DNA of 64,000 nt from Gammaproteobacteria bacterium (GTDB taxonomy: Bacteria > Pseudomonadota > Gammaproteobacteria > CAJXQU01). Positions 53,072 through 62,371 of the stretch are shown piece after piece. The notes below the pieces were generated by a model. The model had not been told where the DNA came from. It was given only the letters and a program-made list of their open reading frames with translations, and did not search any database. The translations under genes were made by a program, and so were the position numbers. The stretch's first letter is position 1; each line of letters begins with the position of its first letter. The stretch is taken from the NCBI GenBank assembly GCA_965238175.1, contig CBDEGZ010000003.1, forward strand, positions 128,001 through 192,000, given 5' to 3'.

Positions 53072-56000
53072 TTACAGATTATCCTCCAACAACATAATTT
53101 CCGTTTTGCTTAGATCAAATAAATCATAAACCAACGAATTGATTTGTTGTTCTGCTTGGGCAATCTGCACACTGAGTTGTTCGATTTTCTCTGTCTCGAC
53201 ATTTAACCAGCTTTCCCAGTCATTACGATCTTGCAAAGGAATATCCTGTTTAAACTGCTTTTTGATCTCACGACGAAATAAAGCAAAATCCAGCGCCCAC
53301 CATTCGATCAGTTTTTTAGATAATTTGGCTTCACGATCAGAAGGACACAAGTCTGGAATGCGTTGACGCACCGCTTTCTGGATCGCATAGCGTTGTTCTG
53401 CAAAGTGTTGACAGGATTCTGCTAGCTCCGCGAGTGTTTGTTTTTGTTGATCTGTAGCTGTTGGGATAGGAAAAGGTTCAATGAACTGATTTTTCATCCT
53501 TAAATACCCACCACGTAAAATTGTAGTGACCGACGAAAAGTGAAACCAAGCCAGGCTAGAATTTAGTATCGCTAGTAATTCAAGTTCGGCATTAGGTAAG
53601 AAGAAAGTTGTGGCTTCTTGATATATACCTGACTTGTCGTAACAAAAAGGATTAGTCGAACAAATTTCGATATAGCTAATTTTTGGTTCTTCAAACATAT
53701 GATAGTAATCACAGGATCGTAGTTCCCACCAAAATTCACCTTTATCACTACGCCTTTTTCCTTTGGCTGAAAATGGAATTAACCAGTTACATATTGCTGG
53801 ATATAGTTGGAGTAGTTCAGAGAAGGCTTTATCCTCGTCAATATTTCCAAATTTAGAAGTCGTCCATCCTTTTGGAAAGAGAATTAAAAAGTTTCCCTGG
53901 TTATCAAAATGCCACTTTCTAATTTCATTTCCTTTGATTAAAGGTTTGACTATCTCAGTAGAGTTTGGATCTTCCCGCACTAGCTGATCACGTGTTTTGC
54001 GATCAATCACAAATGCTTCATTCAACCCAGTTTTGACGCCGTATTTGGGTGATCCATATACTTCTTTTAGCGTCGGTTTTCCTTGCGTAATTTTTGATCG
54101 CAGCTCGGCAAGTTGATGTTCTTCGAGTCGCCAGCTTTGTTGTTGCAATTGCTGTTGTTGCATGACGCGTTGAGATTGTTGGAAGTGACTGTGCAAATCT
54201 TCCGGCAGTTGATTTTGCAGGGACAAAAATGAAATGTTGCTGTTGGGATTTGCCGTTTGATTGCGCGCAATAATAATCGCCGGATAAGTTGTGACCCCTT
54301 CAAACAATTGCAAATCATTAAAATTGATCAGTACTTCCAATGTGGTTTGTTGGCTCAGAAAAGTGCGTAAATTTTTACCACTGCTGGTTTTAAAAAACGT
54401 GCTGGATGAAATGTAACCGAGCAAACCGTCGGGCTTTAACACACGCATACCCAGCTCAAAAAAGTAGCAATACAGATCAGCCACGCCATGATAAACCGTG
54501 TAGTTTTGTTCTAGCCAGGGTTTGATTTCACTAATCCGTTCCTGGCGGACATAAGGTGGGTTTCCGAGCACAACATCAAAACCACCTGTTGCAAATACCG
54601 CAGGAAATTGTTGTTGCCAGTTAAAGGCGTGATGATCAATTTGCCGATCGTTGATCAGAGAATTGCCGTGTTTGAGGTTGTCATCCAGACTGGTTAACGG
54701 TTTGCCCTTGTGCGCAGTTTTCAGCCAGAGTGAGAGTTTGGTAATTTCTATTGATTCTTCATTTAGATCAACACCGTATAAATTGTTGTTGAGGATTTCT
54801 TTATCCAGATCGAAGAGATCCCGGCTGCCGGTAATATCGGCCAGCTTGTCATTTACGCGGGTGTATTCAGCGTATAAATAATCAAATGCGGCAACTAAAA
54901 AAGCACCAGATCCGCAGGCAGGATCAAGTATGCGAATTTGCATTAAGGTATCACGCCAGCTTATCCAGAATTGTTGTTCGGATGATTTATTTTTCCAGCG
55001 TATTTTTTGATCACTTTCTTCAAAAGATTGTTTTTTTGTGTATTGGATCAACAACTGATCAAACGCATTTTTTAAGTAGCTGCCGAGGGTCTTTTCAACA
55101 ATAAACTGGGTGATGTTATCGGGTGTGTAAACGACGCCATGTTGCTTGCGCTTACCTTTAACGGCGGTTTGTTTTTCGATAAGTTGCGTAGGCGTAGTAC
55201 CAGCTTCGATCGTTTCGTGAATGGTTTCCAGATCACTGATCGATTGTTCAAAAATATGCCCGAGTACAGTGACGCCAACTTCGGATTCAAAGTCGTATTC
55301 ACCAAGCGCTTTGAATTTTTCACAAAGATCATCACTAATTACAAGTTGATCTATGGCTGGATCAGGTGAAAATAAACCGCCGTTATACGCGGGTATGTCG
55401 AGCGTTTTGTTACCCTGATTAATTGCCTGAAATAAACCTTTGAAATTTTCCCAAATTGGTTTTTGATTATAGGGATCATTATGTTGATAAGCCTTTTGCA
55501 AAGTTTGTTCTGGCAATAAGCCACGATCTTCCGCGAAAGCGATAAACAAAATACGATCGAGCAGAGTTTGTGCATGGCCGACTAATGTGAGTGACGAAGT
55601 GTTCGGATTGTCGTGTTGTAAGGAGTCGATCAAATGGAAACGTAAGTTGCGGTAATCTTCATAAAGACGACTGGTAATGTCTTTTTCGGCTTTTTCGCTG
55701 GCTTCTAGTAAAGAACGTGTTTCAGTTCTAAGTAAATTTTTTGCAGAGAGTAGCAGCATGAATCGAGCATATTCATGGGGATCTAATAGATCAGTAAATT
55801 GCCAGGTTTCGTAATCCTGGCGACCATAACCGACTGCATATAACCGAACCTCGACATAATTACTTAGTAAAACCCATTTTGCGCCCGGTGCGTCCATTGC
55901 ATATTCCCATGCTTGTTGAACCGGACTTTTATGACGGCCTGACATGATTGCGTCGAGATCTTTGGTGTTAGCACCTTTGAGTTCAAATGGCGCGATGATT

Positions 56001-56287
56001 TGTGCTTCTGTTTCGCTAAAACGGCCAAGTGCAACATCAACATTTCCACGACCAATTTTTTGCTCTCGCTGCAGATCCCATTGATCGGATTCACCAAAAC
56101 CCTGATAACCGAGAACCCCGATCAGAATCTCATGAATAAAATGACCATGGAGGGCAACTTCGTTTTGCGAATAGATCGAACGTGATTCGATGCTGTCCAC
56201 CCATTTTTGCAAAATAGTTTTGTGGGCATCAGGAATATGCAGTTCTGAGATCGAACGAGATAAAATTTTGGATTGAAAAAGTGGCAT
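53072..56287 (-). CDS. Type IIG restriction-modification enzyme (nuclease + N6-adenine MTase + TRD, Eco57I-like)
   Basis: N-terminal VDVALG...PFELKG (PD-(D/E)xK), YNGGLF, ILDPACGSGAFL (motif I), GNPPYV (motif IV) and a TaqI-C-like TRD. Confidence 0.88.
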   Translation of the reverse strand: MPLFQSKILSRSISELHIPDAHKTILQKWVDSIESRSIYSQNEVALHGHFIHEILIGVLGYQGFGESDQWDLQREQKIGRGNVDVALGRFSETEAQIIAPFELKGANTKDLDAIMSGRHKSPVQQAWEYAMDAPGAKWVLLSNYVEVRLYAVGYGRQDYETWQFTDLLDPHEYARFMLLLSAKNLLRTETRSLLEASEKAEKDITSRLYEDYRNLRFHLIDSLQHDNPNTSSLTLVGHAQTLLDRILFIAFAEDRGLLPEQTLQKAYQHNDPYNQKPIWENFKGLFQAINQGNKTLDIPAYNGGLFSPDPAIDQLVISDDLCEKFKALGEYDFESEVGVTVLGHIFEQSISDLETIHETIEAGTTPTQLIEKQTAVKGKRKQHGVVYTPDNITQFIVEKTLGSYLKNAFDQLLIQYTKKQSFEESDQKIRWKNKSSEQQFWISWRDTLMQIRILDPACGSGAFLVAAFDYLYAEYTRVNDKLADITGSRDLFDLDKEILNNNLYGVDLNEESIEITKLSLWLKTAHKGKPLTSLDDNLKHGNSLINDRQIDHHAFNWQQQFPAVFATGGFDVVLGNPPYVRQERISEIKPWLEQNYTVYHGVADLYCYFFELGMRVLKPDGLLGYISSSTFFKTSSGKNLRTFLSQQTTLEVLINFNDLQLFEGVTTYPAIIIARNQTANPNSNISFLSLQNQLPEDLHSHFQQSQRVMQQQQLQQQSWRLEEHQLAELRSKITQGKPTLKEVYGSPKYGVKTGLNEAFVIDRKTRDQLVREDPNSTEIVKPLIKGNEIRKWHFDNQGNFLILFPKGWTTSKFGNIDEDKAFSELLQLYPAICNWLIPFSAKGKRRSDKGEFWWELRSCDYYHMFEEPKISYIEICSTNPFCYDKSGIYQEATTFFLPNAELELLAILNSSLAWFHFSSVTTILRGGYLRMKNQFIEPFPIPTATDQQKQTLAELAESCQHFAEQRYAIQKAVRQRIPDLCPSDREAKLSKKLIEWWALDFALFRREIKKQFKQDIPLQDRNDWESWLNVETEKIEQLSVQIAQAEQQINSLVYDLFDLSKTEIMLLEDNL

Positions 56288-56354
56288 GTACTTTCCTTTT
56301 CTCAGGATTGTGGCGCGGTTCTTTTTTTATCGCAAGTTTTACATTAAATATTGA

Positions 56355-58007
56355 TTAATCTTTGATATGAGTGAATCGCACAGGTACAATCACGCCTCGT
56401 GCCGGGGTGGCGGAATTGGTAGACGCGCCGGATTCAAAATCCGGTTTCTTCGGAAGTGCGAGTTCGATTCTCGCCCTCGGCACCATTTGATTATTGTTGG
56501 TTGAGATATCCCTTAAGAGTTTGAATGGTAAGGAGATTTCTGGTGTTCTAGCGCCATGATTTCGCTCATAAGCTAATCCTTGCGTAAATACGAGTTTTAG
56601 CACGGCTCTTTTATCTTCAAACCTCTCAGAGAGCCATATCTTATGCGGGTTTTCAAGAAATCGCAGCGCGGTTCTAGAAATGCTCTCAAAGGGTCTGATG
56701 GGCTGGCTCACACCCTCTATTTTTTCGTTGAGCAGCGCTTTTTCATGTTCTAGAGTATGCATCTTTGTTTCAAGGTTCTTGGTCACGGCGGCGCTGCTGG
56801 ACTCAATCATTAAATCTAGAGCCTTGTTAATTTTCTCATCTGTTTGCTCGCGCTGGGCTTTTAGCTCTTGCCTGCGTTGTTTTTGATGCTTTGCCCGGTA
56901 ATCCCATATGGCGCTGAACATGGCTGTTGCTGCCTTCATGACCGGCTTGGCAGGGGTTAGAGATTGAAGCAACTCTTCAAACGCGCCCTCCACATCGGCC
57001 CGGCGGAGTGATTTACCGTAGCTCTCGCAGCCCTTTTGTTGGCACAGGTAATAAGGATGGTGTTTGGTTTTGCCTTTACTAAAACACGAGGTGTAAGGCT
57101 TGCCGCAATCACCGCACAGGATAAAGCCGCGCAAAGGGAATTCCTGATTGAGGTCTTTACGCGCAGGCACATAAGCCCGGCCTTTCATACGGCCCTGTAT
57201 GCGCTCGAAAGTTTCCAAGTCTATAAGAGGTTCATGATGAGCCCGTACCATCGATATTCCCCAGCGCTCATGGGTGATATATCCGGCGTAGAGCACGCGG
57301 GTTAGCAAGTCAGGCACACGTTTATTGGCAATGCGTCCATGGGCATTTTTAGGAATGGTCTCATGCTTTTCTAAAAACTTGCGCACTTCTGCTTGGGTCT
57401 GAAACCTCCCCCGTGCATAGCCTTCAAGGGCTTCTTGAACGATAGAGGCGTTTGGCTCATCACGAACCAGCAATTTGCCATGACCTTTGGTCTTTTTGTA
57501 GCGGTAGCCTAGCGGGGCTTGAAAGACAAAATAGCCTTGCTCCAAACGTGCCTGCATTTTTTGAATGGTTTGGCGCCCGGTTTGCGCACGCTCCAGCTCA
57601 CCTTGGGCAGCATGGATAATCTCAACGAACTTGCCTTCAGGCGTATCTTCAAACTTAAAGTTTAAGCACTCTATTGTGGCATGATACTTCGTCATCTCAG
57701 CGCGCAGCTTAAGATGGAACATTGTGTCACGGGCAAAGCGCTTTAAATCATCAAAAATCACCACATAATCTGTATTTCTGCGGCGGCGTAAATAATCCAA
57801 TAGCGCCACCATACCTTTGCGTTTCATAAAATCACCGCCGCCAGAAACGTCATCAGTGAAGACCTTCTCAACGCTATAGCCCTGAGAGTTCGCATATTTG
57901 CGGCAGCGATGTTCTTGGCTTTCTAGCCCTGAGCCTTCAACGCGCTGCTTGATGGAGCTAATGCGGCAATAGATGATAGCTTTTGGTGGTTGAGATGTTT
58001 GCTTCAT
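56355..58007 (-). CDS. Large serine recombinase / integrase (integrated-state reading frame)
   Basis: AIIYCRISS catalytic Ser, DLKRFAR, recombinase domain, Zn ribbon CGDCG...YYLC...C and coiled coil. The last 41 codons run antisense through tRNA-Leu and its upstream DNA. Confidence 0.92.
   Translation of the reverse strand: MKQTSQPPKAIIYCRISSIKQRVEGSGLESQEHRCRKYANSQGYSVEKVFTDDVSGGGDFMKRKGMVALLDYLRRRRNTDYVVIFDDLKRFARDTMFHLKLRAEMTKYHATIECLNFKFEDTPEGKFVEIIHAAQGELERAQTGRQTIQKMQARLEQGYFVFQAPLGYRYKKTKGHGKLLVRDEPNASIVQEALEGYARGRFQTQAEVRKFLEKHETIPKNAHGRIANKRVPDLLTRVLYAGYITHERWGISMVRAHHEPLIDLETFERIQGRMKGRAYVPARKDLNQEFPLRGFILCGDCGKPYTSCFSKGKTKHHPYYLCQQKGCESYGKSLRRADVEGAFEELLQSLTPAKPVMKAATAMFSAIWDYRAKHQKQRRQELKAQREQTDEKINKALDLMIESSSAAVTKNLETKMHTLEHEKALLNEKIEGVSQPIRPFESISRTALRFLENPHKIWLSERFEDKRAVLKLVFTQGLAYERNHGARTPEISLPFKLLRDISTNNNQMVPRARIELALPKKPDFESGASTNSATPARGVIVPVRFTHIKD
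56401..56485 (+). tRNA. tRNA-Leu(CAA)
   Basis: GCCGGGG acceptor stem pairs with CCTCGGC-ACCA. D-loop GGAATTGGTAGAC, anticodon arm CCGGA-TTCAAAA-TCCGG, long variable arm and GTTCGATT T-loop. Confidence 0.97.
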
Positions 58008-58292
58008 TTACTCCTCCTTTGCAGGCGTCGACATTACGCGGCGATGAACAAGTTTAAGATTATGGTTCTTTTTTAAAGAATTGTCAGAATCAGGGGAAGC
58101 TTTTTCAAAGATATCGGGCAAAAACATCTGGACACTATCCAGCCCCCAGCCAATATCAACAAATGTATGCATGATGTGCCACAGAGCTGTGAGGAGCTGC
58201 TCAGCCTCCTCATCGGTAATCTCAACACCGTCTAAATGATGGAGATATTCATCGGGATTAAAGTCTAGCTTCGGTGGTGGTTGGCTGGCCAT
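58008..58292 (-). CDS. Small acidic protein translationally coupled to the integrase
   Basis: 94 aa with RBS AAGGAG. Its TAA directly abuts the integrase ATG (AGGAGGAG-TAA-ATG). Confidence 0.8.
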   Translation of the reverse strand: MASQPPPKLDFNPDEYLHHLDGVEITDEEAEQLLTALWHIMHTFVDIGWGLDSVQMFLPDIFEKASPDSDNSLKKNHNLKLVHRRVMSTPAKEE

Positions 58293-58617
58293 GGGCGTTG
58301 CTCCTTATTGGTAAAGAGTAAAGATAGGCTTACTTTTTACCATTGAGAGCAGTGAGAAATGGGAAACATGTTAATCAGGGAAGAGGGCTTTAACCAGTCT
58401 CAGGCGGTGTAATACAGGCACATTTTTGTATTCCAAATCCATTCAATGCTTGGATATAAACCCAATCACACTCCGTGCAAGCTGTGCGGTGTTATACACC
58501 GCGCTTGGCAAGGGGGTCGCTGCGCACCCCCGTTGCATCCCCCTAGCAGATGGCGTTACTCGCACCATTCAATGTAATCGCATTAGGTTTATAGCTAAGC
58601 TTCCCATGCGATTTTCA

Positions 58618-58647
58618 TTGACATAATTGATTATGGTCTGCTATCAA
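58618..58647 (+). promoter_or_regulatory. Putative sigma70 promoter for the repeat-protein gene
   Basis: TTGACA, 18-bp spacer, TG-n-TATCAA, about 45 bp before the TTG start. Confidence 0.4.
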
Positions 58648-58692
58648 TATCACCCTGAAAGTTAATGGATTAACAATAAGAAAGCGCAAGAT

Positions 58693-60105
58693 TTGTCTAC
58701 TACGAAAGATGTATACGAAGAGTACATTATTGAGTGTTTAAAAGAGGCGGGCCTCACGGATGAGCAAGCTCATTCTGTTTGTCCAACTCTACTGAATGGG
58801 CTTGATTTTCTTGGTGGAACGCGTTCTTTTGACTCTCAGTTATTCGCATATAAAGAGAAGGTCGAGCGAAGCTCTTCGTTGTTAGACCTTAAGAAAAGTC
58901 AGTTCGTTGCAGCGGCACTAAAACAACCTCAACTCTTTTATCAATCGCCGGAAACCATCAACGCGAATGTTGAGGGTAGTGTCAGATTGCTAAAACTTGA
59001 GAAAAAGCAGTTTTTATCCGCGGCACTGAAACAGCCTCAGCTATTTTATCAACGTCCAGAAACCATCAATGAGAATGTTGAAAGGAGTGCTTCATTGTTG
59101 GAGCTTAAAAAGAGCCAGTTCATTGTGGCTGGATTGAAACGGCCCCAGCTTTTTGCTCAATCACCGGAGACAATCAATAGAAACATTGAAGGGAGCGCTG
59201 CATTATTGAAGCTTGAGAAAAGCCAGTTCGTCGCAGCAGCACTAAAAAACCCTTCACTCTTTTATCGATCACCGGAGGCCATCAATAGAAATGTTGAGGC
59301 CAGTGCTCTATTGTTAGAACTTAAAAAAAACCAATTCGTTGCCGCAGCGTTAAAGCAGCCCCAACTCTTTGCTCAATCGCCAGAGACTATCAATGGAAAT
59401 ATTGAGGGTAGTGCTTCACTGCTGGGGCTTGAGAAAAGCCAATTCGTTGCCGCAGCGCTAAAACAGCCTTCACTCTTTCCCCGATCACCAAAGACAATCA
59501 AGAGCAATATTGAAGAGAGCGCTGTGTTATTGGGCCTTGAGAAGGATCAGTTTATAGCGGCGGCTTTAAAGCAGCCTCAGCTTTTTGGCCAATCACCGGA
59601 GACGGTCAACAGCAATGTCGAGAGAAGCGCATCTTTGTTGAAACTTGAAAAAAAACAGTTTGCAGTAGCTGCACTAAAACGGCCCCCTCTTTTTGTTCAA
59701 TCACCAGAGACGATTGCCAGACATGCACGGCTTATGGAGATATTTGCACAAAAAGGCCTTGCGCCTAATTCTGTGCAGAAATTTTATCTTAAAACCCCAC
59801 TTATGCTTACCCTTGCGGATAATAATTTTCACTTGCGTTTGGTATATGCACTTCATTCAAAAATGGGGAATATTGAAAACTTCACATTATTGCGCACACC
59901 AAGAAAAACAATTGAGCGTGATTTTGTGAGGGCTTTGGGGCACAATCCTGATGTCAAAACCATCACAGATATAAAGCCTCGCAGAGAGCAGGTTCAAAGT
60001 AAGGCAGCTCAAAACCTTCGTACTTTGATTGCAAATATACAAAATGGGTTGTTAAAGGGGTATAAGTACGAGCCTACAGAAGAGGTAAGCGAACTTGCTT
60101 TGTAG
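58693..60105 (+). CDS. 36-aa tandem-repeat protein, mTERF-like
   Basis: Eight repeats with consensus LxLxKxQFVAAALKQPQLFxQSPETINxNVExSAxL plus a degenerate ninth (KTPLMLTL...LRLVY). TTG start. Confidence 0.8.
   Translation: MSTTKDVYEEYIIECLKEAGLTDEQAHSVCPTLLNGLDFLGGTRSFDSQLFAYKEKVERSSSLLDLKKSQFVAAALKQPQLFYQSPETINANVEGSVRLLKLEKKQFLSAALKQPQLFYQRPETINENVERSASLLELKKSQFIVAGLKRPQLFAQSPETINRNIEGSAALLKLEKSQFVAAALKNPSLFYRSPEAINRNVEASALLLELKKNQFVAAALKQPQLFAQSPETINGNIEGSASLLGLEKSQFVAAALKQPSLFPRSPKTIKSNIEESAVLLGLEKDQFIAAALKQPQLFGQSPETVNSNVERSASLLKLEKKQFAVAALKRPPLFVQSPETIARHARLMEIFAQKGLAPNSVQKFYLKTPLMLTLADNNFHLRLVYALHSKMGNIENFTLLRTPRKTIERDFVRALGHNPDVKTITDIKPRREQVQSKAAQNLRTLIANIQNGLLKGYKYEPTEEVSELAL
58882..59745 (+). 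repeat. 8 x 108-bp coding tandem repeat
   Basis: Exact 36-codon periodicity, with copies diverged largely at synonymous positions. Confidence 0.92.
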
Positions 60106-60128
60106 TTCTCAAGGGGGAACGCAGCAAC

Positions 60129-60224
60129 TTACTCCAAACTAGGAAAGTTATCTTCAAGATAGTCACTCCACTCCTCCAACGTATCACACAAGGTGTTCGA
60201 GGTTTCACTATCAGGGTGCACCAT
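60129..60224 (-). other. Alternative integrase C-terminus (excised/attP form)
   Basis: Reads MVHPDSETSNTLCDTLEEWSDYLEDNFPSLE* in frame with the shared ATG GTG C core. Confidence 0.75.
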
Positions 60225-60260
60225 TTCAACGTCCACTACCTTCCAGTAACACCTACACAG

Positions 60261-61346
60261 TTACTCTTCTTGCTTGTGTATTAGATCTACTAATGACCTG
60301 TTGATATAAAAATTTGTGCGTCCTACTTTGTGTTTGTCGACAAAATTATGTTCGTATAATTCATTCAAATATTTGCTGGCTGTGATGCGCTTAACATCTA
60401 ATTGATCCATAACAAATTGTACTTTTGTGTAAGGATGAAAAAACAGGTTGTTGAGTAGTTCTTGGCTATAAATTTTTGGTAGTTCTTTACGCATTCTCTG
60501 CTTGGTCACCATAATTAGTTCACGGATCTGATTTACAAACTCTATGGTTTCTCTTGCAGTAATTGCGACACCATCAACAATATAGGCTAGCCAGTCTTGC
60601 CAGTTATTTTGATCGCGAACCAATTGTAACAATCGATAATAATCATCTTTGCTACGGACAATATATCGGCTAAGGTACAAGATAGGTAAGTCTAGCAAAC
60701 CACTTCTTACTAAATACAAAATGTTGAGTATTCTACCTGCTCTTCCATTTCCATCGTAAAATGGATGGATACTTTCAAATTGATGATGAATAATTGCCAT
60801 TTTTATTAATGGATCGAGATCTGAAAGTTGATCGTCGTTAATGTATTCGACAAGGTTGGTGAGCAGATCTGTTATTTCATCTGGGTGCTGTGGAGGAGTA
60901 TGGACAACTTCTCCTGTCCTACTATTACCGATTACAATACCTGGTATTTTTCTAATACCCGGCTTGTTAGGTTCAATGATGGCTTGAATACGTAATATAT
61001 CTTCGAAGCGGATTAGATCTGTGTCTCTTGTATTTCTATAACTTTCCCATAAAGAAGCACGATAGTTCTCCACTTCTTTTGCAGCTTGATTGATTTCTTT
61101 TCCTTGAATAACACCAGCCTGAAAGAGTTGGTCATGAGTGGTAAAGATGTTTTCAATTGCGGAGCTGTCTTTCGCTTCTTGCATTGTTAGTGTAGAAATC
61201 AGTATGCCTTCATTAGGTATGGTTTTAGCCACACCTTTCAATTCAGCAAGGTAACGATGAGCTTGAGCGACTTTTTTTAGAAGCTCTATTGATTCCCATG
61301 AAGCTTCTTCAGGAAAAGGTAACTTCGTAAGAGAGGAAGATTCCAT
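60261..61346 (-). CDS. Fic family protein (Fic_N + Fic + C-terminal wHTH, SoFic-like)
   Basis: EAKDSSAIENI inhibitory helix, HPFYDGNGRAGR Fic motif and C-terminal VKRITASKYLNEL HTH. Confidence 0.92.
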   Translation of the reverse strand: MESSSLTKLPFPEEASWESIELLKKVAQAHRYLAELKGVAKTIPNEGILISTLTMQEAKDSSAIENIFTTHDQLFQAGVIQGKEINQAAKEVENYRASLWESYRNTRDTDLIRFEDILRIQAIIEPNKPGIRKIPGIVIGNSRTGEVVHTPPQHPDEITDLLTNLVEYINDDQLSDLDPLIKMAIIHHQFESIHPFYDGNGRAGRILNILYLVRSGLLDLPILYLSRYIVRSKDDYYRLLQLVRDQNNWQDWLAYIVDGVAITARETIEFVNQIRELIMVTKQRMRKELPKIYSQELLNNLFFHPYTKVQFVMDQLDVKRITASKYLNELYEHNFVDKHKVGRTNFYINRSLVDLIHKQEE

Positions 61347-61459
61347 ATGTATAGAAAACTGGGTTTAATTGATATATGGATCAGTATATGTATATATTTT
61401 CCGATTATCTATACATATCAAGATAAACATATATAGAAAACAGCATAATCTATACATTA
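61345..61459. repeat. Three 41-bp-spaced palindromic operator-like units upstream of fic
   Basis: ATGTATAGA-N11-TCTATACAT consensus at 61347, 61388 and 61429. The right half of the first unit is degenerate. Confidence 0.7.
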
Positions 61460-61599
61460 AAGAAAACTATTTACTTAAAGGATAGATGTGTGAATAAAGT
61501 GAGTAACTTCGATCACCTGGGGGTATTTATAGGGGTATATGAATAAATGTGAAAACAACTAATTCAATATTATCAATTAGTTACTGTTAGTTAGCGGTG

Positions 61600-61617
61600 C
61601 TCGCCCTCGCACCATTT
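61600..61617 (+). repeat. tRNA-Leu 3'-end fragment (attR-like)
   Basis: CTCGCCCTCGCACCATTT versus tRNA CTCGCCCTCGGCACCATTT (one G missing). Confidence 0.8.
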
Positions 61618-61746
61618 CAACGTCCAACACTGTCCAATAACATCCTCGAAAACATAAAATATCAATAATTTACCTTGATTCTTTGTCCTGAGTCGTCTTG
61701 TCTTTTATCTGACTTGGGCTGACGAAGAAATGTTAGCCTAACATAC

Positions 61747-62371
61747 GTTGTCGGTTCGGATCGTTTTAATTCGGAAAGGAAATTTATCCACCACGTAATT
61801 AATGAAATCAATCGAATTAGCTTGCGTGTGTTTCTCATAGATTTTAAGTGCTCTTATACGCGTACAATCATCAACCGCTGTGTATTTTGGAAACGTTTAA
61901 GACGTTTTCCGTGTTTATCTTTGAAAAAGAGAAACTTAACATCCACTTGAACATGATGTCCCGGCACTTTTTTTCGTAACGTTTAAACTTACTGTGTGAA
62001 CGTTTCTTGATGTTTTCAGGGAGCCGATTTAGTTTATTTCGGCACAAGAAACACCCATTGCGAGATATTTTAATGTCATGGTAACGCTGTAGATGCCATA
62101 CAATCATATCTGGGCCAAAATGGTACGTGGTTCTCAAGTAAATAATTTTTTCTTCGATTTCTTTAGGCAATCGTAGTTTATGATTTTCAGGACAAGGTTT
62201 ATTGTTAACTAAAGCAGCTTCCCCATGCTCTTCATATGCTCGCTTCCACGTATAAAATGTTTCCCGACAAATACCAAAGTAACGACAGGTCTTTGCGATA
62301 TTGCCAATTTCTTTAGCGTGATTTAATACCTTTAGTTTTCTTGTAATATCGTGTTGTGCCTTTTGATTCAT
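61747..62371 (-). pseudogene. IS481-family transposase pseudogene (different lineage from copies 1 and 2)
   Basis: GNIAKTCRYFGICRETFYTWK HTH, then across frameshifts PGHHVQVDVKF, TAVDDCTRIRALKIY and FPFRIKTIRTDN. Truncated there. Confidence 0.85.

Follow-up and report, generated by a model that had tools for sequence, protein, structure and literature searches.

The 64,000-nt stretch of DNA analysed here (the window) comes from a Gammaproteobacteria bacterium (GenBank assembly GCA_965238175.1, contig CBDEGZ010000003.1, positions 128,001 to 192,000). It contains a small integrated element, whose integrase gene reads into a tRNA gene. The tRNA-Leu(CAA) gene (56401-56485, plus strand; ARAGORN, Rfam tRNA with 60.4 bits) is the integration target, and its 3' part forms the B arm of the attachment site attB. 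The element comprises 3,738 bp if one core copy is counted (56489..60226). It is flanked by two copies of the 9-bp core GCACCATTT: the attL copy at the CCA end of the tRNA gene (56480-56488) and the attR copy at 60218-60226. Between the cores lie only the integrase gene, an open reading frame (ORF) for a 94 aa protein, a 400-bp spacer and the gene of a 470 aa repeat protein.

The integrase is encoded on the minus strand (56355..58007), and its ORF has no stop codon ahead of the core. The frame arrives with ..NNNQ-M-V, the core spanning A-ATG-GTG-C, and reads through the antisense strand of the tRNA gene. Past the core, the whole antisense tRNA and 43 nt of its upstream spacer, which contains the promoter-like site of the tRNA, supply 41 residues and a stop codon (56355..56479, minus strand). 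This replacement C-terminus from host DNA completes a chromosomal isoform of 550 aa. At the second core, the same frame gives M-V followed by HPDSETSNTLCDTLEEWSDYLEDNFPSLE and a stop codon (60129..60224, minus strand). These 29 residues are acidic, and their homologues are predicted to be helical. The rejoined integrase is predicted to have 509+29 = 538 aa. Both readings had been proposed in an initial annotation of this DNA, the first as an integrase without a stop before the core that ends in antisense tRNA sequence, the second as an in-frame tail that a 3738-bp circle would attach to the enzyme. The former proved exact from the ORF and the ARAGORN and Rfam tRNA calls, the latter by sequence. 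The gene layout, with the integrase reading into antisense tRNA and an in-frame tail at the far core, is confirmed. It is common to hundreds of related elements and may allow the enzyme to sense whether its DNA is inserted or free.

The boundaries of the element

By itself, the 9-mer is not significant, with 4 occurrences within 100 kb of searched sequence. The boundaries were accepted on the grounds of three other observations. First, matches to the tRNA region in five genomes of the same genus end at the core. Second, a relative from a sister species (G004) has an uninterrupted site, at which the tRNA directly joins a sequence that aligns with the right flank of the window (~21/30 nt identical, by eye). 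Third, the tail has homologues at the far ends of related elements, and together with a TCGAAC motif at +24 (see below) it is positioned exactly at the second core. Two sequencing runs with the same species label cover the tRNA only.

The integrase and its family

By every feature that could be tested, the enzyme is a large serine integrase. It comprises the Pfam domains Resolvase, Recombinase and Zn_ribbon_recom. The catalytic domain PF00239 spans residues 10-158 (E 5.5e-24), and PF07508 and PF13408 are matched with E 1.5e-6 and E 6.5e-9, respectively. Among 63 aligned sequences, R15, S17, R63, R90 and R93 are invariant or nearly so, and the zinc-ribbon cysteines C298, C301, C322 and C327 are invariant. 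AlphaFold2 models of two homologues contain a coiled coil at pLDDT (predicted local distance difference test) ~90, formed by helices 351-399 and 403-429 in P0019 and by helices 190-238 and 242-269 in P0093. Matches to solved structures are distant only (E 4e-8 to 2e-4).

A family scan with one genome per species yielded no fewer than 550 relatives, of which the 80 best loci were retrieved with 10-kb flanks. In addition, a panel of 41 relatives' genomes and 15 further genomes reached through the loci were analysed; in ids and coordinates, G000 denotes the window's genome. At E <= 1e-20, the integrase matches none of 50,697 records in a phage collection and one of 72,556 records in a plasmid collection, the latter over 43% of the query.

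The 94 aa partner protein

The gene for the 94 aa protein (58008..58292, minus strand) precedes the integrase gene, with its stop codon abutting the integrase start. A homologue is encoded directly upstream of the integrase in 72 of the 80 loci. Pfam, PHROGs and NCBIfam contain no family for this protein, and Atlas gives unnamed clusters only at 0.82. A complex model of integrase residues 160-510 with the 94 aa protein reached a score of 0.64 compared to 0.00 for the best control. Among 80 solved complexes, 58 attain this mark, as do 2 among 110 mismatched pairs; since the model was run with own alignments, these counts apply only roughly. At least 44% of contacts are shared between model runs, and the pLDDT of the partner is at least 56. 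In the modelled interface, residues 32-51 of the partner contact the base of the coiled coil (integrase residues 355-375 and 434-451) and the last zinc-ribbon strands (464-472 and 492-501). Residues 492-501 directly precede the linker to the tail. According to the available text of PMC12286644, verified directionality factors are predicted to bind the junction of zinc ribbon and coiled coil, and C-terminal extensions of other large serine recombinases were proposed to block that junction. The 94 aa protein is, hence, a candidate recombination directionality factor, predicted from the complex model to bind the integrase at the directionality-factor site.

Integrase genes that end in tRNA genes

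The junction found in the window is a family trait. The integrase ORF enters an antisense tRNA in 70 of the 80 loci, and 17 tRNA species called by ARAGORN are affected. Among the other ten loci, three end at a contig end and seven are without an ARAGORN tRNA, five of these being tRNA-like by eye. Wherever the alignment reaches residue 509/510 (62 loci), the last base of the tRNA is found at the same codon position (62/62). The replacement ends vary from 2 to ~190 residues and have nothing in common beyond the sequence imposed by the tRNA. By eye, ~60 of 82 database homologues terminate in tRNA-antisense residues. For annotation, this means that the C-termini of these integrases in databases are mostly integration artefacts, and the true C-terminus is located kilobases away.

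Six copies of the integrase are present in the window's genome, which is colonised repeatedly by this family. In five of the six, ..LPFKxL.. is followed by approximately nine residues, M-V(A) and the antisense 3' end of a tRNA, namely Leu-CAA, Leu-CAG, Met, Lys and Arg; the sixth terminates in a fragment resembling tRNA-Arg. Two N-terminally truncated integrase remnants (G000:C3:713339-714460 and 2527010-2528053) abut tRNA-Lys and tRNA-Arg(ACG). Paralogue D (L004, G000:C3:1743525-1745105) encodes a full-length integrase and the 94 aa partner, and ends in a tRNA-Arg-like antisense fragment. It may be inserted at a secondary site or be a rearranged copy.

The detached tail

Homologous tails, characterized by the motif N-x-L-x-x-x-L-x-x-W-x-x-x-L, were found 3.7-94 kb upstream of integrase genes on the same strand. 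The window's genome has three of them, each upstream of an integrase on its strand; those of paralogues C and B are 18.9 kb and 28.7 kb away, respectively. A profile search detected a tail on the contig and strand of the integrase, 11-94 kb upstream, in 10 of the 15 genomes reached through loci, the identity of the contigs being checked by their length, and the sister species G005 has such a tail, too. Altogether, upstream tails are a feature of the window's genome and of 11 out of 16 further genomes with integrase that were examined. Two carriers are cultured, Roseovarius sp. E0-M6 (L099, 10.1 kb) and Oceanobacter antarcticus (L022, 38 kb). Within the 41-genome panel, integrases were found in G000, G005 and G020 and tails in G000 and G005, and none of the 38 panel genomes without integrase has a tail (38/38).

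In 12 pairs of ends, the TGG antisense to CCA occupies the same codon position at both ends, so that excision would keep the frame. The initial annotation had regarded it as a refutation if homologous elements carried no conserved tail in frame at their far ends. Such a tail was found, with 11 of 16 genomes, 12 in-frame pairs and codon-level selection (see below) in its favour.

Wherever nothing interrupts the junction, integrase and tail form a single ORF. P0019 (596 aa) and P0093 (378 aa, Recombinase and zinc ribbon) are of this kind, as are the remnants P0092 and P0098. A pseudogene in the window's genome (G000:C3:975.7-976.07 kb; L007, L113) is a decayed integrase 3' end with stop codons and frameshifts that leads in frame into the tail of paralogue C. 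It is a fossil of an uninterrupted junction and suggests a former tandem or dimer insertion. Of 14 proteins fetched from 24 tail hits, 11 consist of an unrelated flank fused to the tail.

One candidate far end at 2.3 kb in L031/L032 was rejected: It is an internal M-V of a longer unrelated ORF. This ORF, conserved and rich in Glu, Arg and Gln, is located upstream of the partner gene (L031 3082-3321, L032 9230-9469) on a Nitrosomonas marina contig and in a metagenome-assembled genome of the Burkholderiales. The 9-mer shared by its internal M-V and the integrase junction was judged a chance match.

Protein and DNA constraint on the tail

Ten tails were compared at the codon level. The helix core L-x-x-x-L-x-x-W-x-x-x-L has a pooled proportion of synonymous differences (pS) of 0.84 and of nonsynonymous differences (pN) of 0.37, and its conserved Leu columns use all six Leu codons. 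Synonymous sites are near saturation while the residues are kept, so that selection acts on the helix core at the peptide level. The tail is under protein-level selection.

E-T-S-N, in the initial part of this tail, behaves differently. Its pS is 0.54, and the S-N codons are TCG in 7/10 and AAC in 9/10 tails. TCGAAC is also the antisense of the tRNA T-loop. In 6/6 pairs, its first base is located at +19 from the T of TGG in the B arm and at +24 in the P' arm; six further pairs have the same codon layout by eye. In the window, the motif occupies 56462..56467 in the B arm and 60195..60200 in the P' arm, there as the codons S-N (both minus strand). For LI integrase, the distance of the zinc-ribbon motif from the centre is 5 bp shorter in attB than in attP, as described in the available part of PMC3783163. 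Since the shift of TCGAAC equals this 5-bp shift, E-T-S-N is probably kept as an attP arm. Its conservation would, to judge by the sequence, reflect a constraint on attP DNA, and the remaining tail is probably kept as protein. The initial annotation had included S-N in its tail motif. The comparison covered the right-hand arms; the best mirror of attP has 8-12/22 matches with inconsistent shifts.

The crossover itself can be narrowed down. In the pair L111/L101, the bases beside TGG differ between the ends, which confines the crossover to TGG. This trinucleotide (56483-56485 in the window) is the minimal core across the family.

Mobilisation genes in larger relatives

The elements of paralogues B and C are larger. 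In both, the stop codon of the tail overlaps the start of a NikA/MobC-like gene, which is followed by a relaxase gene, and a coupling protein is encoded upstream of the 94 aa gene. NikA/MobC-like genes are also found next to the tail in L101, L103 and L107; the one in L102 is below the Pfam cut-off. Since the tail abuts the NikA/MobC-like gene, excision would rebuild an operon of partner, integrase and relaxosome genes. In these relatives, only the circle would allow read-through into the mobilisation genes.

Paralogue B (~30 kb at tRNA-Leu-CAG; L114, L115, G000:C3:1674.8-1705.0 kb) carries a set resembling a cyclic-oligonucleotide-based antiphage signalling system with a DncV-like cyclase, a patatin, a Cap15 receptor, E1/E2-like and JAB proteins. 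Furthermore, it encodes ArdA, a small resolvase, an insertion sequence, a relaxase-helicase and a coupling protein.

How the tail might act

The explanation preferred here places attP inside the last ~30 codons of the integrase gene, as throughout this widespread proteobacterial family, with the tail being separated upon integration and the two isoforms dividing the work. Taken as a whole, it is given an even chance. As read from the sequences, strand exchange at the TGG antisense to CCA detaches the tail from the body of the integrase gene, and the chromosomal copy ends in arbitrary antisense-tRNA residues instead. The tail-bearing isoform made from the circle would integrate, and the tail-less chromosomal isoform would excise with the help of the 94 aa protein. 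This division of labour is a serious possibility, rated somewhat below even. The tail would exit the fold beside the predicted site of the 94 aa protein and could prevent this protein from blocking integration, although both are co-expressed. Because the candidate factor is always co-expressed, something must permit integration, and the tail is the obvious candidate. More tentative, and on balance doubtful, is the strictest version: The state of the DNA would set the direction of the enzyme, as the acidic helix supplied by the circle would make it insensitive to the factor. In the chromosome, where the helix is lost, the factor would bind and the operon would promote excision, and in the larger relatives the same joint would switch on the relaxase operon only in the circle.

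If this were true, the element would be a self-contained two-gene directionality switch that does without separate regulation of the factor and operates at the CCA end of almost any tRNA gene. As candidate factor and integrase share an operon, the question of directionality is directly addressable with this layout. For genome engineering, it would be useful to have an enzyme that takes its direction from a 30-residue tail that can be removed, or a family with ready-made tRNA targets in every genome.

A number of observations weigh against this explanation. Among the data sets listed, this DNA was found in two assembled contigs from one sample and in no RNA; compared with 54500-62000, these contigs contain the integrated form only, with no joint at the cores, and they are uninformative on excision and expression. 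Spread of the family requires catalytic activity of the tail-less isoform. Catalysis must, consequently, be possible without the tail, which could have a minor effect only. In the AlphaFold2 models of P0019 and P0093, it forms a helix at pLDDT ~55-64 behind a disordered linker and does not dock confidently. Mimicry of the 94 aa protein by the tail was considered and rejected (hhalign probability 3.7%). The pairing of integrase and tail is incomplete: No paired tail was found in 5 of the 16 other genomes with integrase. In G043, the tails are on other contigs than the integrase, in G049 and G054 none of the tails forms a pair with it, G041 has a weak match only and G051 none. In the panel, G020 has an integrase, and no tail was found. 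For paralogue D, ARAGORN calls no tRNA at the end of the integrase, and no tail was detected. Two far ends, that of paralogue B and that of L116 (paired with L032), carry a tail but no core that could be recognised. Among the 80 loci, 56 of which have at least 9 kb upstream, the tail lies inside the fetched 10-kb flank in only one (L099), so that most elements must be longer than this flank. Moreover, related elements are not independent samples. Finally, the element in the window contains just the integrase, the 94 aa protein and the repeat protein and is devoid of relaxase, origin of transfer (oriT) and mobilisation genes, so that the operon argument does not apply to it.

The first of the alternatives regards the tail as a stability or activity element. 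The chromosomal isoform would be unstable or weak, and integration would damp the enzyme and lock the element in. Conservation of the tail and protein-level selection on it are in agreement with this view, as are replacement ends of such different length with no common feature. However, excision still needs the chromosomal gene, and a crippled isoform would limit the spread of the element. The 94 aa partner at the directionality-factor site would also be left unexplained. This alternative is considered unlikely.

Still less credit is given to a role of the tail in transfer, either as a docking peptide for relaxosome or coupling protein or as the mere terminus of an ORF whose translation is coupled to that of NikA/MobC, with the mobilisation genes being expressed only from the circle. 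The overlap of stop and start codons with NikA/MobC-like genes in 5/10 tails (plus the one below the Pfam cut-off) speaks for it, as does, in B and C, the arrangement with a relaxase downstream and a coupling protein ahead of the integrase. Yet the element in the window has a conserved tail without any mobilisation genes, L099, L104 and L106 have no such gene beside the tail, and the coupling point lies well downstream of the conserved helix motif.

It is improbable that the tail is a neutral by-product, with attP having drifted into the 3' end of the gene, DNA constraints accounting for the conservation and both isoforms being equivalent. For E-T-S-N, such a view fits: Its codons coincide with the TCGAAC motif and have fewer synonymous differences (pS 0.54). 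An oriT commonly precedes relaxosome genes and might be located before the mobilisation genes here, too. Beyond the arm, by contrast, the high pS with low pN, the use of all six Leu codons and the frame kept in 12 pairs argue for a protein.

That the copy in the window is a fossil, or that its far boundary is wrong and a chance 9-mer simulates a swap that no longer takes place, is highly improbable: The 9-mer is not rare, mobilisation genes are missing, no circle was seen and the genome contains the decayed copies E and F as well as the fragment in L007, but all ORFs of the element are intact, the uninterrupted site in G004 joins both flanks at the core, and tail and +24 motif are located at the second core.

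Comparison with known systems

With other large serine integrases (A118/LI, phiC31, Bxb1, SPbeta SprA, TP901-1), the enzyme shares the order of catalytic domain, Recombinase domain and zinc ribbon, the last of which is interrupted by a coiled coil. Common to them are also short att sites with the arm motif 5 bp further out in attP, and a small partner predicted at the junction of zinc ribbon and coiled coil. It differs from them in its target, the CCA end of tRNA genes, in the location of attP inside its own reading frame and in having the partner in the same operon.

Att sites within coding sequences are no novelty in other families. Archaeal tyrosine integrases of the SSV1 and SNJ2 types reportedly have attP inside the int gene. 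There, as here, integration at a tRNA target splits the integrase gene, but they belong to the tyrosine family and the gene is divided into two large parts, whereas only ~30 C-terminal codons are detached here. In mycobacteriophage BPs, integration is said to remove a C-terminal degradation tag from the repressor. Again, attP is located within a coding sequence, and integration alters a C-terminus and the behaviour of the protein. However, this protein is a repressor, the enzyme is a tyrosine integrase, and the change consists in the loss of a degradation tag. Tn916 is reported to read through its transfer genes in an excision-dependent manner. B and C resemble integrative mobilisable elements in encoding a relaxase, a NikA/MobC-like protein and a coupling protein, and, as in Tn916, circularisation would place transfer genes behind the upstream operon. 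In contrast to them, the element in the window has none of these genes, and the joint is located inside an ORF instead of between genes.

The closest likeness concerns DsiB, the ssrA-specific integrase of Dehalococcoides, whose 3' end always overlaps attL, according to the available text of a 2011 paper (PMC3146451). Its authors speculated that the enzyme is fully functional only on the circle (PMC3146451). Like the integrase in the window, DsiB is a serine integrase of ~540 aa that reads into the antisense of a tRNA-like gene; this likeness is one of description. In DsiB, the target is tmRNA, the insertion was placed in the T-loop and the partner DsiA is a small serine recombinase. Here, tRNA genes are targeted, and the 94 aa partner has no resolvase domain. 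The available text on DsiB reports no conserved detached tail and describes the overlapping ends as divergent. Hence, the novelty implied by the initial annotation is only partly upheld: The overlap at the integrase 3' end was already known for DsiB, together with the same speculation, and the conserved detached tail is not reported in that part of the source.

For the Ccr recombinases of SCCmec, an extension C-terminal to the zinc-ribbon domain was likewise proposed to occupy the directionality-factor site, as far as the available text of PMC12286644 goes. Whereas that extension is permanent, the one described here would depend on the state of the DNA.

In the accessible part of the 2014 Islander paper, serine recombinases are not known to target tRNA genes (PMC4383910). 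Unlike this statement, the present family of at least 550 hits inserts at 17 tRNA species, always at the CCA end. In a Mesorhizobium survey, five mobilisable elements and one conjugative element are counted as carriers of serine recombinases (PMC8627217). The literature searched does not describe serine integrases that insert at tRNA CCA ends and have a conserved detached tail, although supplementary tables may list such elements.

Cargo and neighbourhood

The integrase operon and the cargo gene are divergently oriented. Within the 400-bp spacer that separates them (58293..58692), a 19-nt imperfect inverted repeat is found (58448-58466 / 58582-58600). The cargo gene (58693..60105, plus strand) encodes the 470 aa protein, which comprises ~six repeats of 36 residues (108 nt) and matches Pfam mTERF (E 2.6e-8). 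The mTERF family is known from organelles. Elsewhere in the window's genome, the cargo protein has no clear paralogue, the best other match having E 0.33.

The neighbourhood of the tRNA site looks island-rich. To its left, a 1,071 aa restriction-modification fusion of the Eco57I/MmeI type is encoded (53072-56287, minus strand). To its right, a gene for a Fic/SoFic-like protein (60261-61346, minus strand) and a fragment of an IS481-type transposase gene (61871-62371) are located. A second tRNA called as Leu(CAA) is found at G000:C3:427355-427429; its 75 nt are few for a leucine tRNA, which has a long variable arm. Contig C1 of the same genome (10,967 bp) contains a second tRNA-Leu(GAG). With a GC content of 0.558 compared to 0.404 for the chromosome, this contig may be foreign or a binning contaminant.

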